Below, piece after piece: positions 44,638-58,258 of a stretch of DNA of 64,000 nucleotides. Under the pieces are notes generated by a model, which was given only the letters and a program-made list of their open reading frames with translations, was not told the origin of the DNA and searched no databases. Source of the DNA: Escherichia phage Ec_Makalu_003; sequence record MN882349.1. One strand, given 5' to 3'. A program made the translations under genes and the position numbers. Each line of letters begins with the position of its first letter. Position 1 is the stretch's first letter.

Positions 44638-45314
44638 CTATTTGTTTCGGCTTTTAATTGAGATATTTCTTTACACTCTTTAACGACTTTAACAAATAAT
44701 GCTCTTGCTTTTGCGGCGTCAATAACAAGTAGTTTCTTGTACGCCTTCATTTTAACACTATAAGTTTGCCAAATCAAGTCTTTGGCTACCTTGTCGTGTT
44801 CGTCGATTATATTTAGAAAGCTATCTAACAACATAAACGACTCAAACGATATAATCCGATTTTGCAGTAGTTTAAAGATACCGCTAGTTTCGGTTGCGGG
44901 ATTGTATGTAATTAGCTCTTTAAGAGTAACCCCGCGTTTCTCGGAGAAGTATACCAGACTTTTAACGTCATCGTCAAATCTTGTTGCTGCATCGGTTATC
45001 TTTCCTATGTATTCCATATAAAAGCCGTATGCGTCAACATCAGTGATTTCACCTACCCATGCATCGGTATTAGCTACCAGATTGCTTAGGAATAGGAAGT
45101 ATAATTCTCTTAGATTGTACTTTTCCGCTAATTTTGCGAAATAATACTTATCTCTGCGTTTATTGAATGCGGCATCAGACAACCGCATCCTCCAATTGTA
45201 TTTTACGCAATCATAACGCCCGTTCATATGAGCTTTCATCATGCAATATAACATATACACAGATTTAGCATTAATTCGCATATCTGGATCTGGAGGAAGA
45301 CGGTTTCTGATCAT
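44634..45314 (-). CDS. 59: helicase loader gp59
   Basis: 226 aa alignable to T4 gp59 (YNWRMRLSDAAFNKRRDKYYF, FLSNLVAN). Confidence 0.9.
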   Translation of the reverse strand: MIRNRLPPDPDMRINAKSVYMLYCMMKAHMNGRYDCVKYNWRMRLSDAAFNKRRDKYYFAKLAEKYNLRELYFLFLSNLVANTDAWVGEITDVDAYGFYMEYIGKITDAATRFDDDVKSLVYFSEKRGVTLKELITYNPATETSGIFKLLQNRIISFESFMLLDSFLNIIDEHDKVAKDLIWQTYSVKMKAYKKLLVIDAAKARALFVKVVKECKEISQLKAETNS

Positions 45315-45323
45315 ACATACCCC

Positions 45324-45593
45324 TTAAATATCGAGAGTGTTGGTCGGTTCGTCGATCACTCCCTTCCTGAGCGTTCTATTTACTATACATTCTTGTGTGA
45401 TCTTGTCAATAATGGACACCGGAATATACTTCTGATAGTGACCATATTCGATAGAGTTTTCCTCTACAAACTGAGTTGTCGCTTCAAGATAAGTCAATCC
45501 CTCTTCAACAACCAGTTTTTCGATTGCAAGACCGTTTGCTGTTTTGTTCGCGGCTTTTACCGCATGTTCATTAAGCATTGAACACCCGATCAT
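45324..45593 (-). CDS. 33: late transcription accessory protein gp33
   Basis: IEKLVVEEGLTYLEATTQFVEENSI matches the T4 gp33 core; start could instead be the internal Met at 45578. Confidence 0.8.
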   Translation of the reverse strand: MIGCSMLNEHAVKAANKTANGLAIEKLVVEEGLTYLEATTQFVEENSIEYGHYQKYIPVSIIDKITQECIVNRTLRKGVIDEPTNTLDI

Positions 45594-45846
45594 AGAGTTC
45601 TACCGCTTCGTCGCGTTCTGCTTCGAAGGTTTCGCGCTGTTGCTGGTGATATAGTTTAAACAGAATACCCCACATTTTACCATCTACGCCTAATTCTTCT
45701 TTAGCACGCTGTTTGATCTCTTTGATCTTATCGCCATATGCTTCTTGAATGGTTTTCTGATCGCTGGCTTCTTTAATCAGTTGTGCCAGTGTATTTCCGT
45801 GTACTGCTTCATCAAATACTACTTTTTCTTTTTTCTGTTCAGTCAT
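45571..45846 (-). CDS. dsbA: DsbA-like double-stranded DNA-binding protein
   Basis: 91 aa ORF at the T4 dsbA position between 33 and rnh. Confidence 0.65.
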   Translation of the reverse strand: MTEQKKEKVVFDEAVHGNTLAQLIKEASDQKTIQEAYGDKIKEIKQRAKEELGVDGKMWGILFKLYHQQQRETFEAERDEAVELYDRVFNA

Positions 45847-45850
45847 AATA

Positions 45851-46450
45851 TTAACCCTCTTTAGTCATTAATTGAAAACCACGTTCAGCTTTTGAGATTT
45901 CGCTAGGACGTAAATCATCACCTACATATTCTAGCATCATTTCTCTGATAATGTCAAGTGCTTTTTCATCACCTGATTTTAACTCGAACTCAAGTTCATA
46001 ATGAGCAGTGTCGCCCAATCCTTCGCCTACTTTGCCATAATAGAAAGTGTCTTTGCACATTTCCACTATACCACAACCCATATCTAGAGTCAATGACTTG
46101 CGATATGTCATTACTTGCATTATTGTAGTGATATAGTCTGAGTTTACCTCTAGACTATCAATAAAATGGACGAACTCATCCCAATTTGAAAATGTCGTTT
46201 CCTCGCGGTTGAATAGTCCAGATTCATTATCACCAATTTTGACCATGATCTCTGATTTTCTACAGTCAAGTCGTGCATAAATTCCTTTTTGACGTAGCGC
46301 ATGGTCTTCGGTATCATAATAAAATTCGTGTTTTAATATGTTATCTCGATCTACGATATTATAACCGTCATACATTGCCACCCACAAATCACAGATGGTT
46401 TCGACGCCAATTTGTGAGTGTGCATAGTATTTTAACTCAAGTTCTTTCAT
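45851..46450 (-). CDS. CYTH-domain (triphosphate tunnel metalloenzyme-like) protein
   Basis: N-terminal ELELK (ExExK) and C-terminal acidic HYELEFELKSGDE strand typical of CyaB/ThTPase (CYTH) domains. Confidence 0.55.
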   Translation of the reverse strand: MKELELKYYAHSQIGVETICDLWVAMYDGYNIVDRDNILKHEFYYDTEDHALRQKGIYARLDCRKSEIMVKIGDNESGLFNREETTFSNWDEFVHFIDSLEVNSDYITTIMQVMTYRKSLTLDMGCGIVEMCKDTFYYGKVGEGLGDTAHYELEFELKSGDEKALDIIREMMLEYVGDDLRPSEISKAERGFQLMTKEG

Positions 46451-47632: not shown

Positions 47633-47640
47633 TATAAATA
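47633..47640 (+). promoter_or_regulatory. late promoter TATAAATA for gene 34
   Basis: Exact TATAAATA 29 bp upstream of the ATG at 47669, followed by AAGGAG RBS. Confidence 0.7.
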
Positions 47641-47668: not shown

Positions 47669-50600
47669 ATGGCAGATTTTTCTCAACATTTCAAGGCCAC
47701 ATTTGGCTTTGACGCTGGTAATGAAAAGGTCGTCAATGTAGCATTGGCTGATAAGAATGTCAACACCGATGCGGTCAACGTTGAATTTTTCAATTACCAT
47801 AATGGTATTACTCAGTATGACACAACTCGCGGTTATGATCAATACGGAACTACAATCTATCAAAACCGTCCGTATTATGCAAAAGAAGATATCACAAAGC
47901 CAGCAGGTGATTTTGACCCGACTAAATGGCAAGCACTGCGCACGGACCCACGTTGGGATTATATTGCAGCAACTTCCGGTGATACTCCTTTACAGTCTGG
48001 TGATTATATCGCAGCAGATGGTCAATTTGCAAACTTGACTTTCTCTATGCCATCTAAACCAGCAGAGGGGGACACTATAACAGTAAAAGATATCGGTGGC
48101 AAGTGTGGTGTTAACGAATTATCGTTCTTGAGTTCAGGACATGAGTTTTATCATAACGGTAATGTGTATAACCGAAAATGGTATTGCACTACCCCGTATG
48201 CAATGAACTATTTCATCTTTGTTCGTAATCGTTGGCATGTTTATCAGACAGGAACAGAGCCACGCGGTGTGTACGCACAGCCAGCGATTGATGCTATTCA
48301 AATGCAGAATGGTGATCAGGTATTTCGTCGTAGTTCTTTGGGTAATATTACCTTAGTGCTTCCTAAGTTTGCCAACAATGGCGACATGATCCAGACTACA
48401 GACCTTGACGGATTAACCGCAACCAACCACGTTACGGTTAAAGTTCATGAGCACGCAGAAGAACAATCAATTGGCACGTCCGGTCTAAAAGAGATTATCG
48501 GTAAGCGTAGCGGTCATGGTGTATTCATCTTTGACAAGACGGAAAACTTATGGCGTTTGTGGGATGGTGATCAGTCTGTTCGTCTTAAACCGATCATCGA
48601 TGACACTCGCTTGCAACCTAATAGCTATGTTGCCGTATTTGGTGATCGTGATGTTACTCTGACGCTGCCGACCAATGTCGAGCCGGGTGATCGTATTCAA
48701 GTTTCTATGCAGTATATGCACGGAAACCAGAATTGCCGTATTATCACCGCCACAGAGGATACAAAAATCCTCATGTCGAAAAACATGGTTCAGTTTCCGA
48801 AGCGTAGCGAGTACCCATTCAACGGGACCGACACATGGAAGGAAGTGTCTGAATTGTCGTTCAATGCGGCTAGTGATTATGTACCTTATCTGGAGTTCTC
48901 TTATTCAGAAGGTGATGATGGTAAGAAACATTGGCTGGTAGCACACTCTCATCCGATCGTCGAACGAGTAGACCCTACTCGTAAAGATCGTGTTGGTGTC
49001 ATTGCACTGGCTACCCAGACTGAAACGAATAAAAACCATGAAGAGAATCCTAGCGACGAAGTTGCCGTAACACCAAAAATGCTGGCTAATAAAACAGCCA
49101 ACGAAACTCGACGCGGTATTGCTCGTATTGCTACTCAGGCGGAAACGCATCAAGATACTGGTTCCAGCTTCCTGGATGATGTTATCGTTACACCTAAAAA
49201 GTTAAATGACTGTGTTGCTACCGAAGCCCGTCGTGGTGTGATGGAAATTGCAACCCAGCACGAAACCAATGAAGGTTTAGACGATACACGCGCTATTACT
49301 CCTAAGAAATTAGAAGAACGTCGCGCTTCCGAAGACCTCGCTGGTATTGCTGAAATTGTTCAGGTAGGCGGTCGTGCTGCCGCTCGACGTGGTGAAGCTG
49401 GTACAGGGATCTATAACATCAATGACCATGCTAAAATTGTTACACCACAAAACATCAACGAGGTCAAGGCGACCGAAACTTCCCGTGGTGTTGGCTATCT
49501 GGCAACTGACGCGGAAGTGCAAGGGGCTACAGAATCAACCCCGCAAGATGCTTTACTAATCACGACTCGCACGCTAACGAAACGTACTGCTACCGAATCG
49601 CGCACTGGTATCGCTGAAATTGCAACTCAGGAAGAAACAAACTTAGGTCAAAGTGATAACCATATCATCACGCCTAAAAAGCTGCATACTCGCCGTGCGA
49701 CGGAAACTCTACACGGTTTAGCAGAAATTGCAACTCAGCCGGAATTTGACGCAGGTCTTGACGATGCTCGCATTTCTACCCCATTGAAGATTAAAACCTT
49801 CTTTGAGAATGCACAGCGTTTGAAAGTAGATCCGACTCAGGGGCTTAACCTTACTGGTGATTTGTGGCAAGGTATCATGATCAGCGGTCTGGACGCAACC
49901 GAAGACACAAAAGGTGTCGCTAAAGTTGCTACTACTCAGCTTACTGACGCTGGTCAAGATGATACTACAATCATCACGCCTAAAAAGCTGCAAGGCAAAA
50001 AGGCCACCGAAGGTAAAGAAGGTATTATCCGAGTTGGTACTCAAGCCGAAACCGTGGCTGGTACACTGGCTAATGTAGCAATTTCTCCGAAGAACTTCAA
50101 ATATGTTGTTCAGACAGAGGATACATGGAAAGCAACCGAAGCTCGTCGTGGTTTCTTGAAAGTTGCTACTCAGGAAAACTGTTTTGTTGGTGACAATCTG
50201 CAAGGTTCTACTCAAGAACTAGGAAACTATCAGCATGACGGAATTGCTGTTACTCCGAAAGGATTAAACTACGCACTTGCTAATTTCTTGCCTAAGATGG
50301 CAACCGCTCAGAATAGTTTGAAATTGGGTAACGTAGAGGCCGCTAAATGGGCGCGTAGAGACATTGACCAGACCATAGAGAGCAATTACACGTTTAATAA
50401 AAACGTTAACGTGAAGGGCGATTTAGAGTGCTTAAAATCAGGTTCCTTTGAAACTCTGTATGTGACTAAGAACTCTACTGATGATCCGAGTAATGGTCAT
50501 CTGGTGTTGGGTGAGCGTGGAGTTGACGGTCACACCGGAATTACTCTGCATGGCACAACCGCATCGGAAGGCATGAAAAACTCCTGGTCTATTATCGTTG

Positions 50601-51409
50601 GTGGTACTGGAACGGCGCAAGCAGTTAATAGTGGCGCTATCGCTTTCGGTCAAATCAATGATGGTGGAGTCGTCGAGCATTACGCCTTTGCTATGGAACA
50701 CAATGGCGACGCGACAGCATATAGAGACTTTATTGCAGGTCGTAACCTGTATGCGAAACAAGGCGGTTTATACATTGTTGACCAGTCTAATCCGGCAATG
50801 ACTCGTTCCCCAGATGGTATGCTGAATATCGGTCACGGTGGAAGTGTTAACATCAAGGCAGGTTCTCAAACGTTAACTACAGAGATCGCCGGACAGAAAT
50901 ATCAGATCGTACACGCAGGAAACGCCGACGAAGTTCTTAACCGTCGGTTTGTTAAGAATGCTGGCGATACAATGGTCGGTAAGCTGACTATGGATAATGC
51001 GCCTATTGTTTCTGTTAAACATGAAGCTAGCGCGGCAACCGCTCCGGCAATTGGTAACATCGGTTTCTGGAATATGCGAGTTACTACCCAGAACATCAAA
51101 GAAACTTATCCAGAGAAGAAAAACGGTACTCTGATGCAATGGGGTACTGACGCGGACGGGCTTACCCAGCTTTGGTCCCCTGATGGTACTCATAAACATT
51201 ATATCCGTTCCGGTACTGGTGGTCAATGGACCGCATGGGGTGAAATTTACACCAAACAGAATAAGCCTACCGCTCAGGAAATCGGGGCAGTAGTTGCAGA
51301 AGGTGGTTTAATGAACTCTATGACGGTGCGTGACTGGATCAAGGTTGGTAATGTTAAAATCATCGCCAATAATCTGACTCGTACCGTAGATTTTATCTGG
51401 GAAGACTAA
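47669..51409 (+). CDS. 34: long tail fibre proximal subunit gp34
   Basis: 1246 aa; extensive alignment to T4 gp34 including the repeated IATQ.ET/ITPKKL motifs and C-terminal RDW..GNV.I. Confidence 0.95.
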   Translation: MADFSQHFKATFGFDAGNEKVVNVALADKNVNTDAVNVEFFNYHNGITQYDTTRGYDQYGTTIYQNRPYYAKEDITKPAGDFDPTKWQALRTDPRWDYIAATSGDTPLQSGDYIAADGQFANLTFSMPSKPAEGDTITVKDIGGKCGVNELSFLSSGHEFYHNGNVYNRKWYCTTPYAMNYFIFVRNRWHVYQTGTEPRGVYAQPAIDAIQMQNGDQVFRRSSLGNITLVLPKFANNGDMIQTTDLDGLTATNHVTVKVHEHAEEQSIGTSGLKEIIGKRSGHGVFIFDKTENLWRLWDGDQSVRLKPIIDDTRLQPNSYVAVFGDRDVTLTLPTNVEPGDRIQVSMQYMHGNQNCRIITATEDTKILMSKNMVQFPKRSEYPFNGTDTWKEVSELSFNAASDYVPYLEFSYSEGDDGKKHWLVAHSHPIVERVDPTRKDRVGVIALATQTETNKNHEENPSDEVAVTPKMLANKTANETRRGIARIATQAETHQDTGSSFLDDVIVTPKKLNDCVATEARRGVMEIATQHETNEGLDDTRAITPKKLEERRASEDLAGIAEIVQVGGRAAARRGEAGTGIYNINDHAKIVTPQNINEVKATETSRGVGYLATDAEVQGATESTPQDALLITTRTLTKRTATESRTGIAEIATQEETNLGQSDNHIITPKKLHTRRATETLHGLAEIATQPEFDAGLDDARISTPLKIKTFFENAQRLKVDPTQGLNLTGDLWQGIMISGLDATEDTKGVAKVATTQLTDAGQDDTTIITPKKLQGKKATEGKEGIIRVGTQAETVAGTLANVAISPKNFKYVVQTEDTWKATEARRGFLKVATQENCFVGDNLQGSTQELGNYQHDGIAVTPKGLNYALANFLPKMATAQNSLKLGNVEAAKWARRDIDQTIESNYTFNKNVNVKGDLECLKSGSFETLYVTKNSTDDPSNGHLVLGERGVDGHTGITLHGTTASEGMKNSWSIIVGGTGTAQAVNSGAIAFGQINDGGVVEHYAFAMEHNGDATAYRDFIAGRNLYAKQGGLYIVDQSNPAMTRSPDGMLNIGHGGSVNIKAGSQTLTTEIAGQKYQIVHAGNADEVLNRRFVKNAGDTMVGKLTMDNAPIVSVKHEASAATAPAIGNIGFWNMRVTTQNIKETYPEKKNGTLMQWGTDADGLTQLWSPDGTHKHYIRSGTGGQWTAWGEIYTKQNKPTAQEIGAVVAEGGLMNSMTVRDWIKVGNVKIIANNLTRTVDFIWED

Positions 51410-51442: not shown

Positions 51443-52582
51443 ATGACACAAGATATAGAATTACGCAACACTGGAATTAGGTTTGCGCATTTCGATGAGG
51501 ACTCCGCGACATTTACCAGCATTTCAGAAAACAACTCTGTGATGTATAAGCTGGAAGTGCGCGGATCTAATGCGGATTCTACCAAACCAGCAAGGATTAG
51601 ATTTAATGGAGTGGAGATCGTTGGCACTGGCTATGAAAATGGCCTAAATTTTAAAGTTCTTACTCCAACTGGACAACTACACGAAGAAAAGGTATTCTAT
51701 GGTCGCGGTGCTGTTTTGGCAATGCGTGATTATCTTTCTTTGCTGAAAGGTGACTATATCATTGCGATGGCAACGCATGGAGAATTGTTTGCAGATCCGG
51801 TAAGTGATGTTGTATTTTCTAAGCTGGGATCTGTATCATTCCCGAATCACATTTTGTTACAGCAAATGCCTCGTGTATCCTATGCAGCAATTTATTCTAC
51901 GAAAATGGGTAAAATTGTGTGCGAAGGTATGCAAGCGACCCACGGGGAAGGACAAGATTCATCTATACAAATTGAGAAAGTCTATGATACTATAGATGAT
52001 CTTGCTATAACAGGAACACCACAACGATTTTTAGATTATCCGGTTGAGTATGTTAGCGAAGATGCCGAACATTTCGAGCTAATACAATGGCCTCATGATG
52101 AGATCAGCTCACCACTTGAAGATTTTAACATAAAGGCAGGTGACAAACTATCAATATCTTTTGAATTGTTCCGTGATAGTGCCGCAGCCGCAGCCAACGT
52201 AACAGCGCGTTTCTATCACAACTACTTCACCGATGGACAATATCAAACTGGTGTTCGATACAATGCCAGCAAAAAAGACCAATGGGAAAAGTTTGAAGCC
52301 GTCTATACCGTACCGGAAGGAGTTGATAGTGTAGTAACTGGTTGTATCAGATATCCAACCAACTCCAATGAAGGTATTGTTAAAATTAGAAACATACTAA
52401 TAACGCCGATCAGTGGAGTCGTCAAAACTACTGGTCCTACTTCATTTGGCGTTAATGGTGTTAGAACAACTCATATTCAGGATAACGGTGATTTTACTAA
52501 CCCTGTAATGAGTCTTCTTAAACTACCTAGAGATAATAAACACATCACATCCAACAACTTTAAAGAGTTCGATGTTGATTAA
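51443..52582 (+). CDS. 35: long tail fibre hinge protein gp35
   Basis: 379 aa, size and position of T4 gp35. Confidence 0.8.
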   Translation: MTQDIELRNTGIRFAHFDEDSATFTSISENNSVMYKLEVRGSNADSTKPARIRFNGVEIVGTGYENGLNFKVLTPTGQLHEEKVFYGRGAVLAMRDYLSLLKGDYIIAMATHGELFADPVSDVVFSKLGSVSFPNHILLQQMPRVSYAAIYSTKMGKIVCEGMQATHGEGQDSSIQIEKVYDTIDDLAITGTPQRFLDYPVEYVSEDAEHFELIQWPHDEISSPLEDFNIKAGDKLSISFELFRDSAAAAANVTARFYHNYFTDGQYQTGVRYNASKKDQWEKFEAVYTVPEGVDSVVTGCIRYPTNSNEGIVKIRNILITPISGVVKTTGPTSFGVNGVRTTHIQDNGDFTNPVMSLLKLPRDNKHITSNNFKEFDVD

Positions 52583-52743: not shown

Positions 52744-52751
52744 TATAAATA
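52744..52751 (+). promoter_or_regulatory. late promoter TATAAATA for gene 36
   Basis: Exact TATAAATA 34 bp upstream of the ATG at 52785. Confidence 0.7.
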
Positions 52752-52784: not shown

Positions 52785-54275
52785 ATGGCAGATTTGAAAT
52801 ATGGATCTACTGTAGGTGGATCTCCCATTTGGACGCAAGGAAACTTGACGATCCAGCCAGCGGGGGATCAGCTTTTCTACAAAGGTCATAAAATCTATAC
52901 CGCTTTTGATAGACCTTCGGCTACCGATTTTGATGCTGTTAGTGCATCCGAAGGTGGCACATTTCAAAAGCAAGTTCATTTCGAGGAAGGTTTAAGCGTA
53001 GGTAGCGCATCGGCTGGAGAAACCAAAAAGAATGGTATCTTTAAAGGTCAGAGTGACGCTGCTAATTTTGACGGCGTAAGCTGGGGTTTGCATTCATGGA
53101 AGTCAATCGGCTTTGTTAATGCCCGTGATGGCGTTATTATGGCGTATATTGACACCACAACGGGCGAATTTAAGTCTAAAGGGACTATCGAAGGGACAAC
53201 CATTAAAGACACAGGTCAACGCGTCTATAGCCCTGTTAATAAACCAACGAATAATGATTTAGATTTGGTGTCTCGTCGCGGTGATACCCTCACAGGAACA
53301 TATAATTTAAACACTGTCACTGTTAAACTATCGGTTGATTCGAAATTAATTGCAAGGGAACGTGATTTAATTAATTTTGATGCGACTAAGATCTATTATG
53401 GTAACGTTCTTGATACGTTGGTATTCCGAAGTAAAGATGAGCCTACCATTTTTGTTAATGGCAAAGAAGGTCGTTTTTATCACACCAACAATAAACCAAC
53501 TAAAGCCGATGTGGGACTAGGCAATGTCACCAATGATGCACAGGTTAAACGTGCTGGTGATATTATGGAAGGTAACTTGCAAGCGCCTAGAATGTTGGCG
53601 ACAAACGATCCTGCTGGTCCGAATGAATTGGTTCGTTTGAGCTACTTTGAGAGAAAATCAATGGTAGCAAATCCAACCATCATAGGAAACGTTGATTGGA
53701 ACACTCTTATTAATCGCGGTATCTATCGTGTGGAAAATGCGGGATCAGGTACTAATAAACCGTCTGATAGCTATTATAACGGCGTTTTGATGGTATACCG
53801 ACCAGAAGATGCGGTCGGTACTCGTCGAATTGTTCAGGTGTATTATCCTGAATCTATTGACCATCCGATGTGCTGGCGTTCTTGTTCTAATGAATCGTGG
53901 ACTGCATGGAACTATGTAGATCACCGTAAATTAGCCGATATTCGCTATGTTAACGTAACTGGTGATACCATGACAGGACCGTTAACTGTTCCGGCTGCAA
54001 ATGGCGTTAGAACGGCTAGAGGTGCATATAATGGTGATAACTACTATGCTGGGTTAAATAGTGCCGATGGCACGGCTATGATTCACCGTATCAGCGATAT
54101 TAAAGCCACCGAAAAATTGGGGATCACCCACGACTCAAAGGTCGTGTTTTTCCGTTCTAGAAACAATACTCAAACCGTGGATCGCTATCAGCTTTATCAT
54201 GAAGGTAATAAACCTACTCCGGCTGATGTTGGTGCGGTTCCACTTAATGCGGTGATTGATTTTGGTACTTTCTAA
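52785..54275 (+). CDS. 36: long tail fibre distal connector gp36 (enlarged)
   Basis: N-terminus MADLKYGSTVGGSPIWTQGN matches T4 gp36; 496 aa versus 221 in T4. Confidence 0.85.
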   Translation: MADLKYGSTVGGSPIWTQGNLTIQPAGDQLFYKGHKIYTAFDRPSATDFDAVSASEGGTFQKQVHFEEGLSVGSASAGETKKNGIFKGQSDAANFDGVSWGLHSWKSIGFVNARDGVIMAYIDTTTGEFKSKGTIEGTTIKDTGQRVYSPVNKPTNNDLDLVSRRGDTLTGTYNLNTVTVKLSVDSKLIARERDLINFDATKIYYGNVLDTLVFRSKDEPTIFVNGKEGRFYHTNNKPTKADVGLGNVTNDAQVKRAGDIMEGNLQAPRMLATNDPAGPNELVRLSYFERKSMVANPTIIGNVDWNTLINRGIYRVENAGSGTNKPSDSYYNGVLMVYRPEDAVGTRRIVQVYYPESIDHPMCWRSCSNESWTAWNYVDHRKLADIRYVNVTGDTMTGPLTVPAANGVRTARGAYNGDNYYAGLNSADGTAMIHRISDIKATEKLGITHDSKVVFFRSRNNTQTVDRYQLYHEGNKPTPADVGAVPLNAVIDFGTF

Positions 54276-54288
54276 TTTTAGCGGGGAT

Positions 54289-54314
54289 TCTCTCCCCGCT
54301 TTTCTAAATAATAT
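54289..54314 (+). terminator. terminator-like hairpin after gene 36
   Basis: AGCGGGGA-TTCTC-TCCCCGCT then TTTT. Confidence 0.55.
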
Positions 54315-54345: not shown

Positions 54346-57288
54346 ATGGCAGATTTAAGCAGAATCCAATTTAAACGTACTAGCACTAAAGGCCGTCGAC
54401 CTGATGCTGGTACGATGAATCCGGGGGAATTGGCAATCAACCTTGCGGATCAATATCTTCTTACTAAAAATGATTCCGGCGCTATTATCAATTTAAGTTG
54501 TCCTCCGGTTTATGACCGTGATGTTACAATGGCGGGTAAGGTTAAAGGAAATAATTATATTTTAAGTAAAACCGCCAATTATCTGGAAGACCAGACAGCG
54601 AGAGATCTTAACTACTTTGGTGCTTTCCGTACCAATAGTCTAGATGGACTCATGGATCTAACCCTTAACGTTCCTCACTCTTCCGGTAAAGCGCATGGTC
54701 GAGGATTTACTTTCCGTTATGGGACTGGCGGATCTCGTGTTGAAACCTATGGTTTTGATGTTCAGGGACAAAAAGCATTTAGTTATAAAATGTATCATGA
54801 AGGGGATAAACCGACTCCCTCAGAATTGAACGTTTATAGCAAACAAGAAGTTGACCGTATGTTTGTTAAAACCGTTAAACTTGCTACAGTTCCTGTTGAT
54901 ATCGTTGACGGTTATTTTAAATTAGCAACTGCATTGATTCCGCAAAACGGTCGTAGTGTATTTTTCCGTATTCATGGTGGTAACGGATATAACGTTACTG
55001 CATACGATCAAGTTGATATTGTAGAAATTGTTATTCGCAGTGGAAATAATCGTCCTAAAGGTGTTAACGTTATTGCATACCGCCGAAATACAAACAAAGC
55101 ATTTGATGTTTTGGCTGTTAATACTTCTGGTGATAACTATGATATCTACGTGAAATATCAGCGTTACACTGATAACGTTATTGTTGAATTTGGTAAAAGT
55201 GTTGATGTTGATCTGGTGGTTCATGACGTTCCAGACTTTGTTGTTGATCGTCCTGTTGGTGATAATGTTATTGGCGGTCGCGCGGTAACTCTTTTTAACA
55301 CCGAAAACAAACGAGGTGTGTTGAGTTTTGACGATAACACACAAAATAGTTATGATATTGTTCACTTGAGTAATGATAAAGGTACTGGAAGGAAATATAT
55401 TCGTAAATTCCGTAGTAACTATAATGAAATGATCTGGCATGAGACGGTTCAAGGTTCCAGTTATCGACTCGCCACGGGTAGTACAGATGCTCAGGAAATT
55501 ATAACTATTGAATCTAGTAGCTCAATTGCTGGAACTCATAAAGGTAATATTATTTCTGGTCGTATGCTGTTAAATGGCGGATCTAATGCCATTACACTAC
55601 GCCGACCTGCTGGTCAGTCTAATCATATCGCTTTTCAGGATAACCGCACCGGAGATATTACTCGTCAAGGATGGATCGGTTATGCAAACGCTGATACTAA
55701 CGTTTTTGAATGGTATAGTGATGTAGGCGGTAGTTCTATTCGTCAACATATTGACGGCCAGATAGAACTTCAAACTGGCAATATGAAGCGAGTTTATACT
55801 AACGCTCAATTCATCTCAATGAATAGCGACGCCTACCGTATGCTCTATGGTAATTATGGTGCATTCTGGCGTAATGACGGCGTTAAAGTTTATCTTCTTT
55901 CTACTGCCGAAAATGATAAATTGGGCGGATGGAATACTTATCGTCCATTCATTTATGATTTAACTTCCGGTAACGTTCAATTAGGTGGTGATGGTAACGA
56001 AGATGCATTAACTTTAGAATGTGCTTCTCGTGCCGCTCGCTTTAGTAATGACGTTTACATTAAGAAAGGGCATTTGACTTTCGATGCTGGTCGATTAAAT
56101 TCTCGTGATTACTTCCGGTTTAACCATTGGGGTGATAGCAATAACGCCCGTGATAACATCCTACAGCTTGACGATAGCAAAGGTGCACACTTCACCACTG
56201 AACGTACTTTAGCAACTGGTGCGATTAGAACTAAATTCTTCGGTGATTTGGAAGCTGCTGGTCAAATTAAATGGGGTAAAGGGACCGCCGCATCTACGTT
56301 TACTCTACGTGTATGGGGTAACGATAGTCGTAAACAAATATTTGAATGCGGCGATGAAAGCGGGTGGCATTGGTATACCCAACGCGCTGGCGGTCCAGAT
56401 ACTTCTGCAATTGAGTTTGCCATCAACGGTACTGTTAAGCCTCAAGCAATTCACACTGGCGGTAATATCACTATCAACGGTGCTGATATTGAGTTTAAAC
56501 GCACTGGCAATAAGCACATCTGGTTTAGAGACCCGAACGGTTTAGAGTTAGGCTTGATGTACTGCGATGATGCTGGTGCTATTCGCTTCCGTGGTCAGAA
56601 ACAAGCCCAGGCGTGGAAATTTGCAGATAAAATGATCCAGTTGGAATCTGGCACTGTATCCGGTGGCGGTAATGGCCTGATTCGTGGTGAAGTTGCTGGC
56701 GGTAGTTGGGCTAGCTGGCGTGACCGTGCTGCTGGCCTTATGGTTGGGTGTCCTCAATCCGTTGATTCGGCACATAACGTATGGAAAGCGACGCATTGGG
56801 GTAAATATCATATCGCAGCAATGGGTGTACATGTTCCTAGTGGTACGATTACCAATGCTTTAGCTCGCCTAAACGTTCATGACGCTAACTTTGACTTTAG
56901 CGCCTCCGGTGACCTGTCGGTAGGGCGTAATGGTTCGTTTAACGATGTTTATATTCGTTCTGATGCTCGCCTTAAAATCAACAAAGAAGAGTATAAAGAG
57001 AATGCCACCGATAAAGTTAATCGCTTGACGGTATACACCTATGACAAGGTTAAATCTTTAACCGACCGCACTGTCATTGCTCATGAAGTTGGTATTATTG
57101 CTCAGGATCTTGAAAAAGAATTGCCGGAAGCAGTAACAACTTCTAAGGTCGGCGATCCTGATAAGCCAGAAGAGATCTTAACAATTTCTAACTCTGCTGT
57201 CAACGCTCTTTTAATTAAGGCGTTTCAGGAAATGAGCGAAGAATTGAAAGTCGTTAAAGCTGAACTAGCGGAACTTAAAAAGAATTAA
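54346..57288 (+). CDS. 37: long tail fibre distal subunit gp37 with C-terminal intramolecular chaperone domain
   Basis: N-terminus MADLSRIQFKRTS...GELAINL matches T4 gp37; the last 110 aa (56959-57288) begin with SDARLK, the autoproteolysis motif of S74-type chaperone domains. Confidence 0.9.
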   Translation: MADLSRIQFKRTSTKGRRPDAGTMNPGELAINLADQYLLTKNDSGAIINLSCPPVYDRDVTMAGKVKGNNYILSKTANYLEDQTARDLNYFGAFRTNSLDGLMDLTLNVPHSSGKAHGRGFTFRYGTGGSRVETYGFDVQGQKAFSYKMYHEGDKPTPSELNVYSKQEVDRMFVKTVKLATVPVDIVDGYFKLATALIPQNGRSVFFRIHGGNGYNVTAYDQVDIVEIVIRSGNNRPKGVNVIAYRRNTNKAFDVLAVNTSGDNYDIYVKYQRYTDNVIVEFGKSVDVDLVVHDVPDFVVDRPVGDNVIGGRAVTLFNTENKRGVLSFDDNTQNSYDIVHLSNDKGTGRKYIRKFRSNYNEMIWHETVQGSSYRLATGSTDAQEIITIESSSSIAGTHKGNIISGRMLLNGGSNAITLRRPAGQSNHIAFQDNRTGDITRQGWIGYANADTNVFEWYSDVGGSSIRQHIDGQIELQTGNMKRVYTNAQFISMNSDAYRMLYGNYGAFWRNDGVKVYLLSTAENDKLGGWNTYRPFIYDLTSGNVQLGGDGNEDALTLECASRAARFSNDVYIKKGHLTFDAGRLNSRDYFRFNHWGDSNNARDNILQLDDSKGAHFTTERTLATGAIRTKFFGDLEAAGQIKWGKGTAASTFTLRVWGNDSRKQIFECGDESGWHWYTQRAGGPDTSAIEFAINGTVKPQAIHTGGNITINGADIEFKRTGNKHIWFRDPNGLELGLMYCDDAGAIRFRGQKQAQAWKFADKMIQLESGTVSGGGNGLIRGEVAGGSWASWRDRAAGLMVGCPQSVDSAHNVWKATHWGKYHIAAMGVHVPSGTITNALARLNVHDANFDFSASGDLSVGRNGSFNDVYIRSDARLKINKEEYKENATDKVNRLTVYTYDKVKSLTDRTVIAHEVGIIAQDLEKELPEAVTTSKVGDPDKPEEILTISNSAVNALLIKAFQEMSEELKVVKAELAELKKN

Positions 57289-57328
57289 GGAAACTCCCAG
57301 GGAAGGGAACTACTAAGGAGAAACGGCT

Positions 57329-57568
57329 ATGGTCTATAATATCGTCATTGGTGCTTTGTCTAATTTCGGAATGAAATTATTGTCAAAGTTAATTAGTGAA
57401 AAGATGCTCACTAAAATTTTCTTCTATTGCGCTCGTCGTCTTGCGGCTTATACCAATACGCCAATTGATGATCGTTTTGTGGAAGAACTTTATAAGGAGT
57501 TTAATAAAGATCAGTCAGAAGATAGTAACGAGCAAGATAAACCTAGTGATAGTCAACTACCTAAATAA
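57329..57568 (+). CDS. small hypothetical protein (79 aa) at the position T4 uses for gene 38
   Basis: ORF with AAGGAGA RBS; hydrophobic N-terminus, acidic C-terminus; no gp38 similarity. Confidence 0.45.
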   Translation: MVYNIVIGALSNFGMKLLSKLISEKMLTKIFFYCARRLAAYTNTPIDDRFVEELYKEFNKDQSEDSNEQDKPSDSQLPK

Positions 57569-57601: not shown

Positions 57602-58258
57602 ATGCAAGTTTCTGAAAAAGGGAAAGACTTTGCTATCTCAAATGTCCTGCGCGCTATTTTCACAACTAAAAGCACGGAGTTGCTCGTACTTCGTGTTTTT
57701 GCTGCCGTCGTGTTGTCCATATTAGCATTTGTCGTTTATAGTAAAAACGAGTTATTCGCGCTTTATAAAGAGACTCGTTATGAGACTTATGCTCACATTC
57801 TCCAGGTAGAGAAAGACCGCAATTTTGATAATGCAGCACAGGAGCAGTTACAGATAGTTCATGTATCGGCTGATGCCGATTTTTCTGCTGTTTTTAGTTT
57901 TCGTCCGAAAAACCTAAACTATTTTGTTGATTTGGTGGCATATGAAGGAAAGCTACCGCATACAATCGATGAAAAAAATTTAGGCGGATTCCCTATCAAT
58001 AAAACGAGTGAAGAATATCGTAGGCATCTTTTAGGTAAATCATATTTTACCGATAAAGATTTCCAGTATATTCCATCAAGAGAAAAGAAATTAGAGAATA
58101 TCGATATAGGTTTCATGTATTCTTGTCCTATATTCAATCTCGATAATGTCTATTCTGGTAGTATCGCCATTTCATGGAAGAATAAACCGGATATTGACAT
58201 TGAGAATTTAGATACTCTTTGCAATCAATCTGCCAGAATCCTCGGAAGGATTAGATAA
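57602..58258 (+). CDS. t: holin t
   Basis: 218 aa alignable to T4 holin T (EQLQIVH.S.DADFSAVFSFRPKNLNYFVD, YMYSCP.FNLDN, ARILGR). Confidence 0.9.
   Translation: MQVSEKGKDFAISNVLRAIFTTKSTELLVLRVFAAVVLSILAFVVYSKNELFALYKETRYETYAHILQVEKDRNFDNAAQEQLQIVHVSADADFSAVFSFRPKNLNYFVDLVAYEGKLPHTIDEKNLGGFPINKTSEEYRRHLLGKSYFTDKDFQYIPSREKKLENIDIGFMYSCPIFNLDNVYSGSIAISWKNKPDIDIENLDTLCNQSARILGRIR

Follow-up and report, generated by a model that had tools for sequence, protein, structure and literature searches.

In phage T5, the fibre protein pb1 carries its own chaperone, which is cleaved off at the bond Thr1263-Ser1264, the serine leaving together with the chaperone, and the exposed tip of this self-sufficient fibre binds the receptor without an adhesin (PMC4690869). 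In phage S16, gp37 is cut at DLNVS^SDRRIKK, which exposes the dock for gp38, and by alignment to S16 a cut at DVYIR^SD was predicted for gp37 proteins featuring a DVYIR-SD.RLK junction; here, DVYIR represents a flat tip, which serves as dock for the N-terminal tryptophans of gp38 once the chaperone is gone (PMC7917993). Such a junction, DVYIR|SDSRLK, is found in T6 gp37, where it is followed by a chaperone of 113 residues, and the T6 adhesin gene g38 is located immediately 3' of gene 37, ahead of t. For RB49, the self-cleaving chaperone of gp37, the displacement of g38 and host-range mutations in gp38 are already published: a small ORF was found in the place of g38 (PMC3157838), gp38 was reported as the receptor-binding protein, and host-range mutants carried the exchange E230K in gp38 (PMC9569957).

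The window analysed here, a stretch of 64,000 nucleotides from Escherichia phage Ec_Makalu_003, corresponds to about positions 97-161 kb of Phi1 according to an alignment to that genome and belongs to the RB49/Phi1-like genus Krischvirus. Over genes 37 to t, its DNA shares 96.5% identity with Escherichia phage Ec_Makalu_001, 95% with Phi1 and 88-94% with the RB49 records, and every one of these phages is a Krischvirus. The region holds the late genes for tail fibres and lysis of an RB49-like phage in a co-oriented block on the + strand with gene 34 (47669-51409, 1246 aa), gene 35 (51443-52582, 379 aa; both named by PHROGs and Pfam), the gene of the small distal half-fibre subunit gp36 (52785..54275, 496 aa; full-length match to phrog_16472), gene 37 (54346-57288, 980 aa), an ORF of 79 aa (57329..57568) and the holin gene t (57602..58258, 218 aa; Pfam Phage_holin_T, 206.7 bits; phrog_860). 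With the fibre locus of RB49, Phi1 and JSE it shares the order 34-35-36-37, small ORF (Dc5), t, a DNA identity of 88-96.5% over genes 37 to t, a gp36 of 496 aa and, judging from these relatives, a g38 at a distant locus, and the differences are ordinary allelic variation only. Within gp37, the C-terminal 250 aa are 98% identical to Ec_Makalu_001. An exact match to the T4-type late promoter motif TATAAATA lies upstream of gene 36 (52744..52751, + strand) and a second copy ahead of gene 34 (47633-47640); since the seven copies in the whole window do not exceed the number in shuffled sequence, these putative late promoters are assigned by position only. Scans of the window for tRNAs and Rfam families revealed no RNA genes.

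As stated in the original prediction, gp36 is about twice as long as its T4 counterpart (496 vs. 221 aa; 216 aa in T6). Its residues 1-171 align with residues 1-184 of T4 gp36 at 37% identity, and the extra C-terminal half, which is conserved across Krischvirus, is built of repeated fibre modules bounded by NKPT...GD.M.G motifs. In a three-sequence comparison, this part weakly resembled the C-terminal module of gp34 (27% identity over 132 residues, E 0.008). Only three full-coverage homologues of the C-terminal half were found, a PDB sequence search with it returned nothing, and its AF2 model reached a pLDDT of 32.

The distal end of gp37 carries an S74-type intramolecular chaperone domain, with a fold like that of solved chaperone domains. 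It spans aa 872-980, i.e., 109 residues (56959..57288 on the + strand, including the stop codon), and starts with SDARLK exactly at nt 56959, where it had been placed from the sequence, with a length of 110 residues claimed at the time. The HMM search proposed as a check on that claim gave a match of Pfam Peptidase_S74 (PF13884) to aa 872-931 with 45 bits (E 1.3e-11), which, at a gathering score of 22, is far beyond chance. The motif SDARLK (56959..56976, + strand; aa 872-877) contains Ser872 and Lys877, the catalytic residues predicted from homologues, and in an alignment of 25 homologues with identities down to 37%, Ser872, Asp873 and Lys877 were invariant. A PDB sequence search aligned RSDARLK of gp37 with SSDRRIK of S16 gp37 (PDB 6f45), and the Ser-x4-Lys spacing of Ser872 and Lys877 equals that of Ser1264 and Lys1269 in T5 pb1 (PMC4690869). 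Counterparts of the folding sensors Arg1250 and Asp1239 of T5 were searched for in the same alignment, but the 30 residues preceding Ser872 contained no invariant Arg or Asp; with T6 left out of the alignment, Gly855 was the only invariant position of this stretch.

The AF2 model of gp37 aa 781-980, which depicts a monomer of a trimeric domain, showed low confidence at its beginning and pLDDT values of 75-94 from model residue 100 on. Strands at 116-167 and a helix at 169-199 (model numbering, pLDDT 80-94) reproduce the beta-hairpins and the subsequent long C-terminal helix of the S74-domain fold, whose helices assemble into a coiled coil in the trimeric state. The best Foldseek match of the model in the PDB was 7dc3, the ICA domain of MyRF (E 2e-4, TM 0.66), and further best matches were 3gud (GA-1 chaperone) and 3gw6 (K1F chaperone). 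With the Peptidase_S74 chaperones of the K1F endosialidase, the GA-1 neck appendage, T5 pb1 and MyRF, gp37 has in common a profile match beyond the cut-off, the Ser-x4-Lys dyad, the fold and the C-terminal place after a trimeric fibre. In those proteins, however, the mature protein itself binds or catalyses, whereas the mature tip of gp37 would represent a dock for a separate adhesin.

Autoproteolytic release of the gp37 chaperone is to be expected from homologues and the literature. The cuts described for T5 and S16, together with the prediction of DVYIR^SD, suggest by homology that mature gp37 consists of residues 1-871 and that the released chaperone comprises residues 872-980 (109 residues), with Arg871-Ser872 as the predicted scissile bond. 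The predicted mature protein, the large distal half-fibre subunit, is encoded at 54346..56958 (+ strand; phrog_1699, E 9e-198) and would end in DVYIR (56944..56958, + strand; aa 867-871), the surface reported for gp38 docking, which is identical in T6 gp37.

This kinship to T6 extends far upstream of the junction, as residues 479-974 of gp37 align with residues 532-980 of T6 gp37 at 43% identity over 502 aligned positions. With the gp37 and gp38 system of T2, T6 and S16 (PDB 6F45), the locus shares the homologous distal half of gp37, the DVYIR|SD.RLK junction and the chaperone, so that both a distal gp37 like that of gp38-carrying phages and a conserved docking tip are present, and the gp38 proteins of the close relatives belong to the same Pfam families and possess the N-terminal tryptophans. 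It differs in that g38 of the relatives is separated from gene 37 by about 106 kb, in the doubled length of gp36 and in the N-terminal part and the middle of gp37. Inside gp37, a Gp34_trimer-like domain is located at aa 439-537 (55660..55956, + strand; Pfam PF21446, 91.5 bits), for which the PDB matches were the T4 gp34 entries 4uxe and 5nxf. In comparison to T4, where gp37 depends on the chaperones gp38 and gp57A, the protein occupies the same position in the fibre, and similarity to T4 gp37 is confined to the N-terminal residues 1-69 of gp37. In contrast to T4, gp37 features neither the His-rich (His-box) needle nor the gp37_C domain, the window lacks a gp38 chaperone gene of the T4 type, and instead gp37 bears a chaperone of the self-cleaving type; gp37 is therefore not of the T4 type. 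No Pfam match to PF12604 or PF20744 was obtained in gp37, and NCBIfam gave no name for gp36, gp37 or the 79-aa ORF.

The original prediction had further pointed out that gene 37 is followed only by a 79-aa ORF without similarity to gp38 and then by holin t, which was borne out by Pfam, tblastn and hhalign. Furthermore, g38 is absent from the window as a whole: in tblastn searches with gp38 of Phi1, T6 and T4 against all six frames of the 64 kb nothing better than E 0.5 appeared, and on inspection no glycine-rich motifs were seen among window ORFs of about 200-320 aa. It is present in the relatives. Gene 38 of Phi1 encodes 258 aa at 44989-45765 on the opposite strand among early-region ORFs, at a distance of about 106 kb from gene 37; its product matches the Pfam families GP38 (238 bits) and Gp38_N (66 bits) and retains at its N-terminus the T6 tryptophan motif GW.GSS..ETGQRWMS. 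Directly upstream of Phi1 g38, no late promoter was visible, only a terminator-like hairpin. According to tblastn, full-length gp38 is encoded in Ec_Makalu_001, the closest relative, and in RB49, JSE, ECD7 and others; of the 30 genomes best matching the window, at least 26 carry it. Since the Phi1-type g38 locus lies outside the window, it could not be seen when the original prediction was made, and from the relatives we infer that Ec_Makalu_003 carries g38 in the rest of its genome.

Taken together, the fibre of Ec_Makalu_003 very likely follows the T2/T6/S16-type mechanism, in which gp37 is folded by its chaperone, cleaves itself and is docked by a gp38 encoded elsewhere, which reads the receptor. 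The 109-residue chaperone (aa 872-980) would drive folding of the fibre-tip trimer, and in the correct trimer Ser872, activated by Lys877, would cut the Arg871-Ser872 bond. Departure of the chaperone would expose the flat DVYIR tip, on which one gp38 adhesin monomer may dock via its N-terminal tryptophans, leaving receptor recognition to gp38. The corresponding g38 would be situated about 106 kb from gene 37 among early-region ORFs, while its usual slot is held by a small unrelated ORF (Dc5).

This small ORF occupies the place that g38 has in T2 and T6, is preceded by a TAAGGAG ribosome-binding site 8 nt upstream and belongs to phrog_402 (E 5e-20; precomputed family PF26925), while it has no Pfam match of its own. 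It corresponds to RB49p252/253, annotated as "Dc5" (PMC6832132), a name which the papers searched take no further than a figure legend. Its position could point to a replacement fibre chaperone or mini-adhesin acting on gp37, all the more as a FelixO1-like homologue is likewise located directly 3' of a tail-fibre gene and as the heptapeptide EELYKEF is common to the ORF and the T4 gp38 chaperone. The heptapeptide, which produced an E value of 0.001 in one pairwise BLAST comparison, is nevertheless a chance similarity, as it is not kept in the ORF's own family and hhalign assigned a probability of 1.5% to kinship with T4 gp38. Moreover, a chaperone is already part of gp37 and a normal gp38 exists in the genus, and several homologues are found behind endolysin genes with no fibre gene beside them: of two Vibrio phages, one has the homologue immediately 3' of its GH108 endolysin gene and the other has it behind genes for an M15 peptidase and an HNH protein, and in an IMG/VR contig it immediately follows a GH24 lysozyme gene. 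A fibre role of the 79-aa ORF is thus quite improbable.

Instead of serving as a fibre chaperone, the ORF probably has to do with lysis. In the Dc5 family, the N-terminal stretch of some 40 residues is weakly hydrophobic, and the motif T-x-x-D-D-x-F, with Pro or Lys following the Thr, is invariant. The FelixO1-like homologue is flanked by the tail-fibre gene and by a gene that is annotated as a holin but has no function in PHROGs, and a further homologue lies just ahead of a T7 gp18-like packaging gene, a slot which we take to be the position of T7 holin 17.5. In a SU10-like phage, no lysis gene is located near the homologue. The family (phrog_402/PF26925) might represent small weakly hydrophobic proteins of phage lysis cassettes, which could be holin-like or act as partners of holins or endolysins; this reading, and with it a direct role of the 79-aa ORF in lysis, is conceivable but doubtful.

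A further option would be that the original prediction was right in letting gp37 itself specify the receptor, i.e., that the fibre is self-sufficient like that of T5 pb1 and that the gp37 tip, exposed after its own chaperone is cleaved off, binds the receptor without any adhesin. The S74 domain in gp37, the lack of a gp38 gene after gene 37 or elsewhere in the 64-kb window and the precedent of T5 pb1 (PMC4690869) would be in line with this option. Yet, the region before the predicted cut is homologous to gp37 of the gp38-carrying T6 and corresponds to a T6-type gp38 dock with an identical DVYIR tip, of the 30 closest Krischvirus genomes checked at least 26 possess a full-length gp38 gene at another locus, and the host-range exchange E230K of RB49 maps to gp38 (PMC9569957), all of which renders a self-sufficient fibre highly unlikely. 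Equally unlikely is an S74 domain that persists as an inactive relic on a full-length virion gp37, for which the sensor residues missing from the alignment and the indirect basis of the gp37 cleavage could be put forward, but against which speak the active-site Ser, Asp and Lys, invariant in homologues down to 37% identity, the confidently predicted domain fold with pLDDT values up to 94 and the reported gp38 dock, a surface exposed by cleavage alone. That Ec_Makalu_003 itself has lost gp38 and binds the receptor via gp37 is likewise highly unlikely, and much less likely than the lysis-family reading of the 79-aa ORF.

With regard to the T2/T6/S16-type mechanism favoured here, chaperone-bearing gp37 and gp38 go together in T-even-type phages and are consequently not alternatives, as the original prediction had taken them to be. 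Its factual statements all hold, and its interpretation is partly supported: the S74 chaperone and the missing gp38 after gene 37 were upheld, and the receptor inference, its one new element, is contradicted by the genomes of the relatives and by published host-range genetics. Since the T2/T6-type design is published and gp38 is very probably encoded elsewhere in the genome, the tail fibre tip of this phage appears ordinary. For annotation and host-range prediction, the receptor-binding protein of Krischvirus is to be sought in gp38 at its distant locus, and relying on the gene that follows gene 37 is consequently misleading. The 79-aa ORF found in the g38 slot represents a modest lead for lysis biology.

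In gp37, a match to the domain with which gp34, the protein of the proximal fibre, trimerises at its C-terminus (Pfam Gp34_trimer, 91.5 bits; PDB 4uxe) was found at 55660-55956, i.e., at residues 439-537 of gp37, and also at residues 647-713. With this gp34-like domain in gp37, the proximal and distal half-fibres provide a case of shared modules. The small distal subunit gp36 (52785-54275) reaches 496 aa vs. 221 aa for its T4 counterpart, and its extra C-terminal half is made up of further fibre modules bounded by NKPT and GDxMxG motifs, one of which is weakly similar to residues 1089-1193 of gp34. The extra half is kept throughout Krischvirus, and outside this genus it matches the fibres of Klebsiella and Serratia phages at only 28-31%. 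Between genes 36 and 37, for which co-transcription from the late promoter at 52744 is expected, there is a GC-rich hairpin with a T run behind it (54281-54299; GCGGGGATTCTCTCCCCGC TTTTCT).

Downstream of gene 37, the slot of gene 38 is occupied by a 79-aa ORF (57329-57568; RB49 "Dc5", phrog_402, PF26925), which adjoins the holin gene t. Members of this family, whose N-terminus is weakly hydrophobic and in which the motif T-x-x-D-D-x-F is invariant, adjoin endolysin genes (GH108, GH24, M15) or sit in a T7 holin-like slot. No characterisation of the family was found in the literature searched; the Dc5 ORF is probably lysis-associated.

In the database, Peptidase_S74, GP38 and Gp38_N occur together in one called protein of 303 aa from an E. 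coli contig (P0032), which may be a true fusion or else the product of a gene call that starts in the last part of a gp37 and continues into gp38. In the related phage Phi1, the displaced gene 38 (neighbourhood at 44880-46060 of Phi1, outside the window) is surrounded by small early-region ORFs, not an obvious setting for the expression of a late structural gene. A terminator-like hairpin lies directly upstream of it, where no TATAAATA late promoter was found, and downstream follow a terminator and then a strong TTGACA-17-TATAAT promoter.

In some phages assigned to Krischvirus, namely FL04, FL15 and FL20, gp38 is reported to be located close to the holin, which is not the case in FL37 and FL38 (PMC12032242). 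Consequently, the position of gene 38 may vary within Krischvirus as currently defined.
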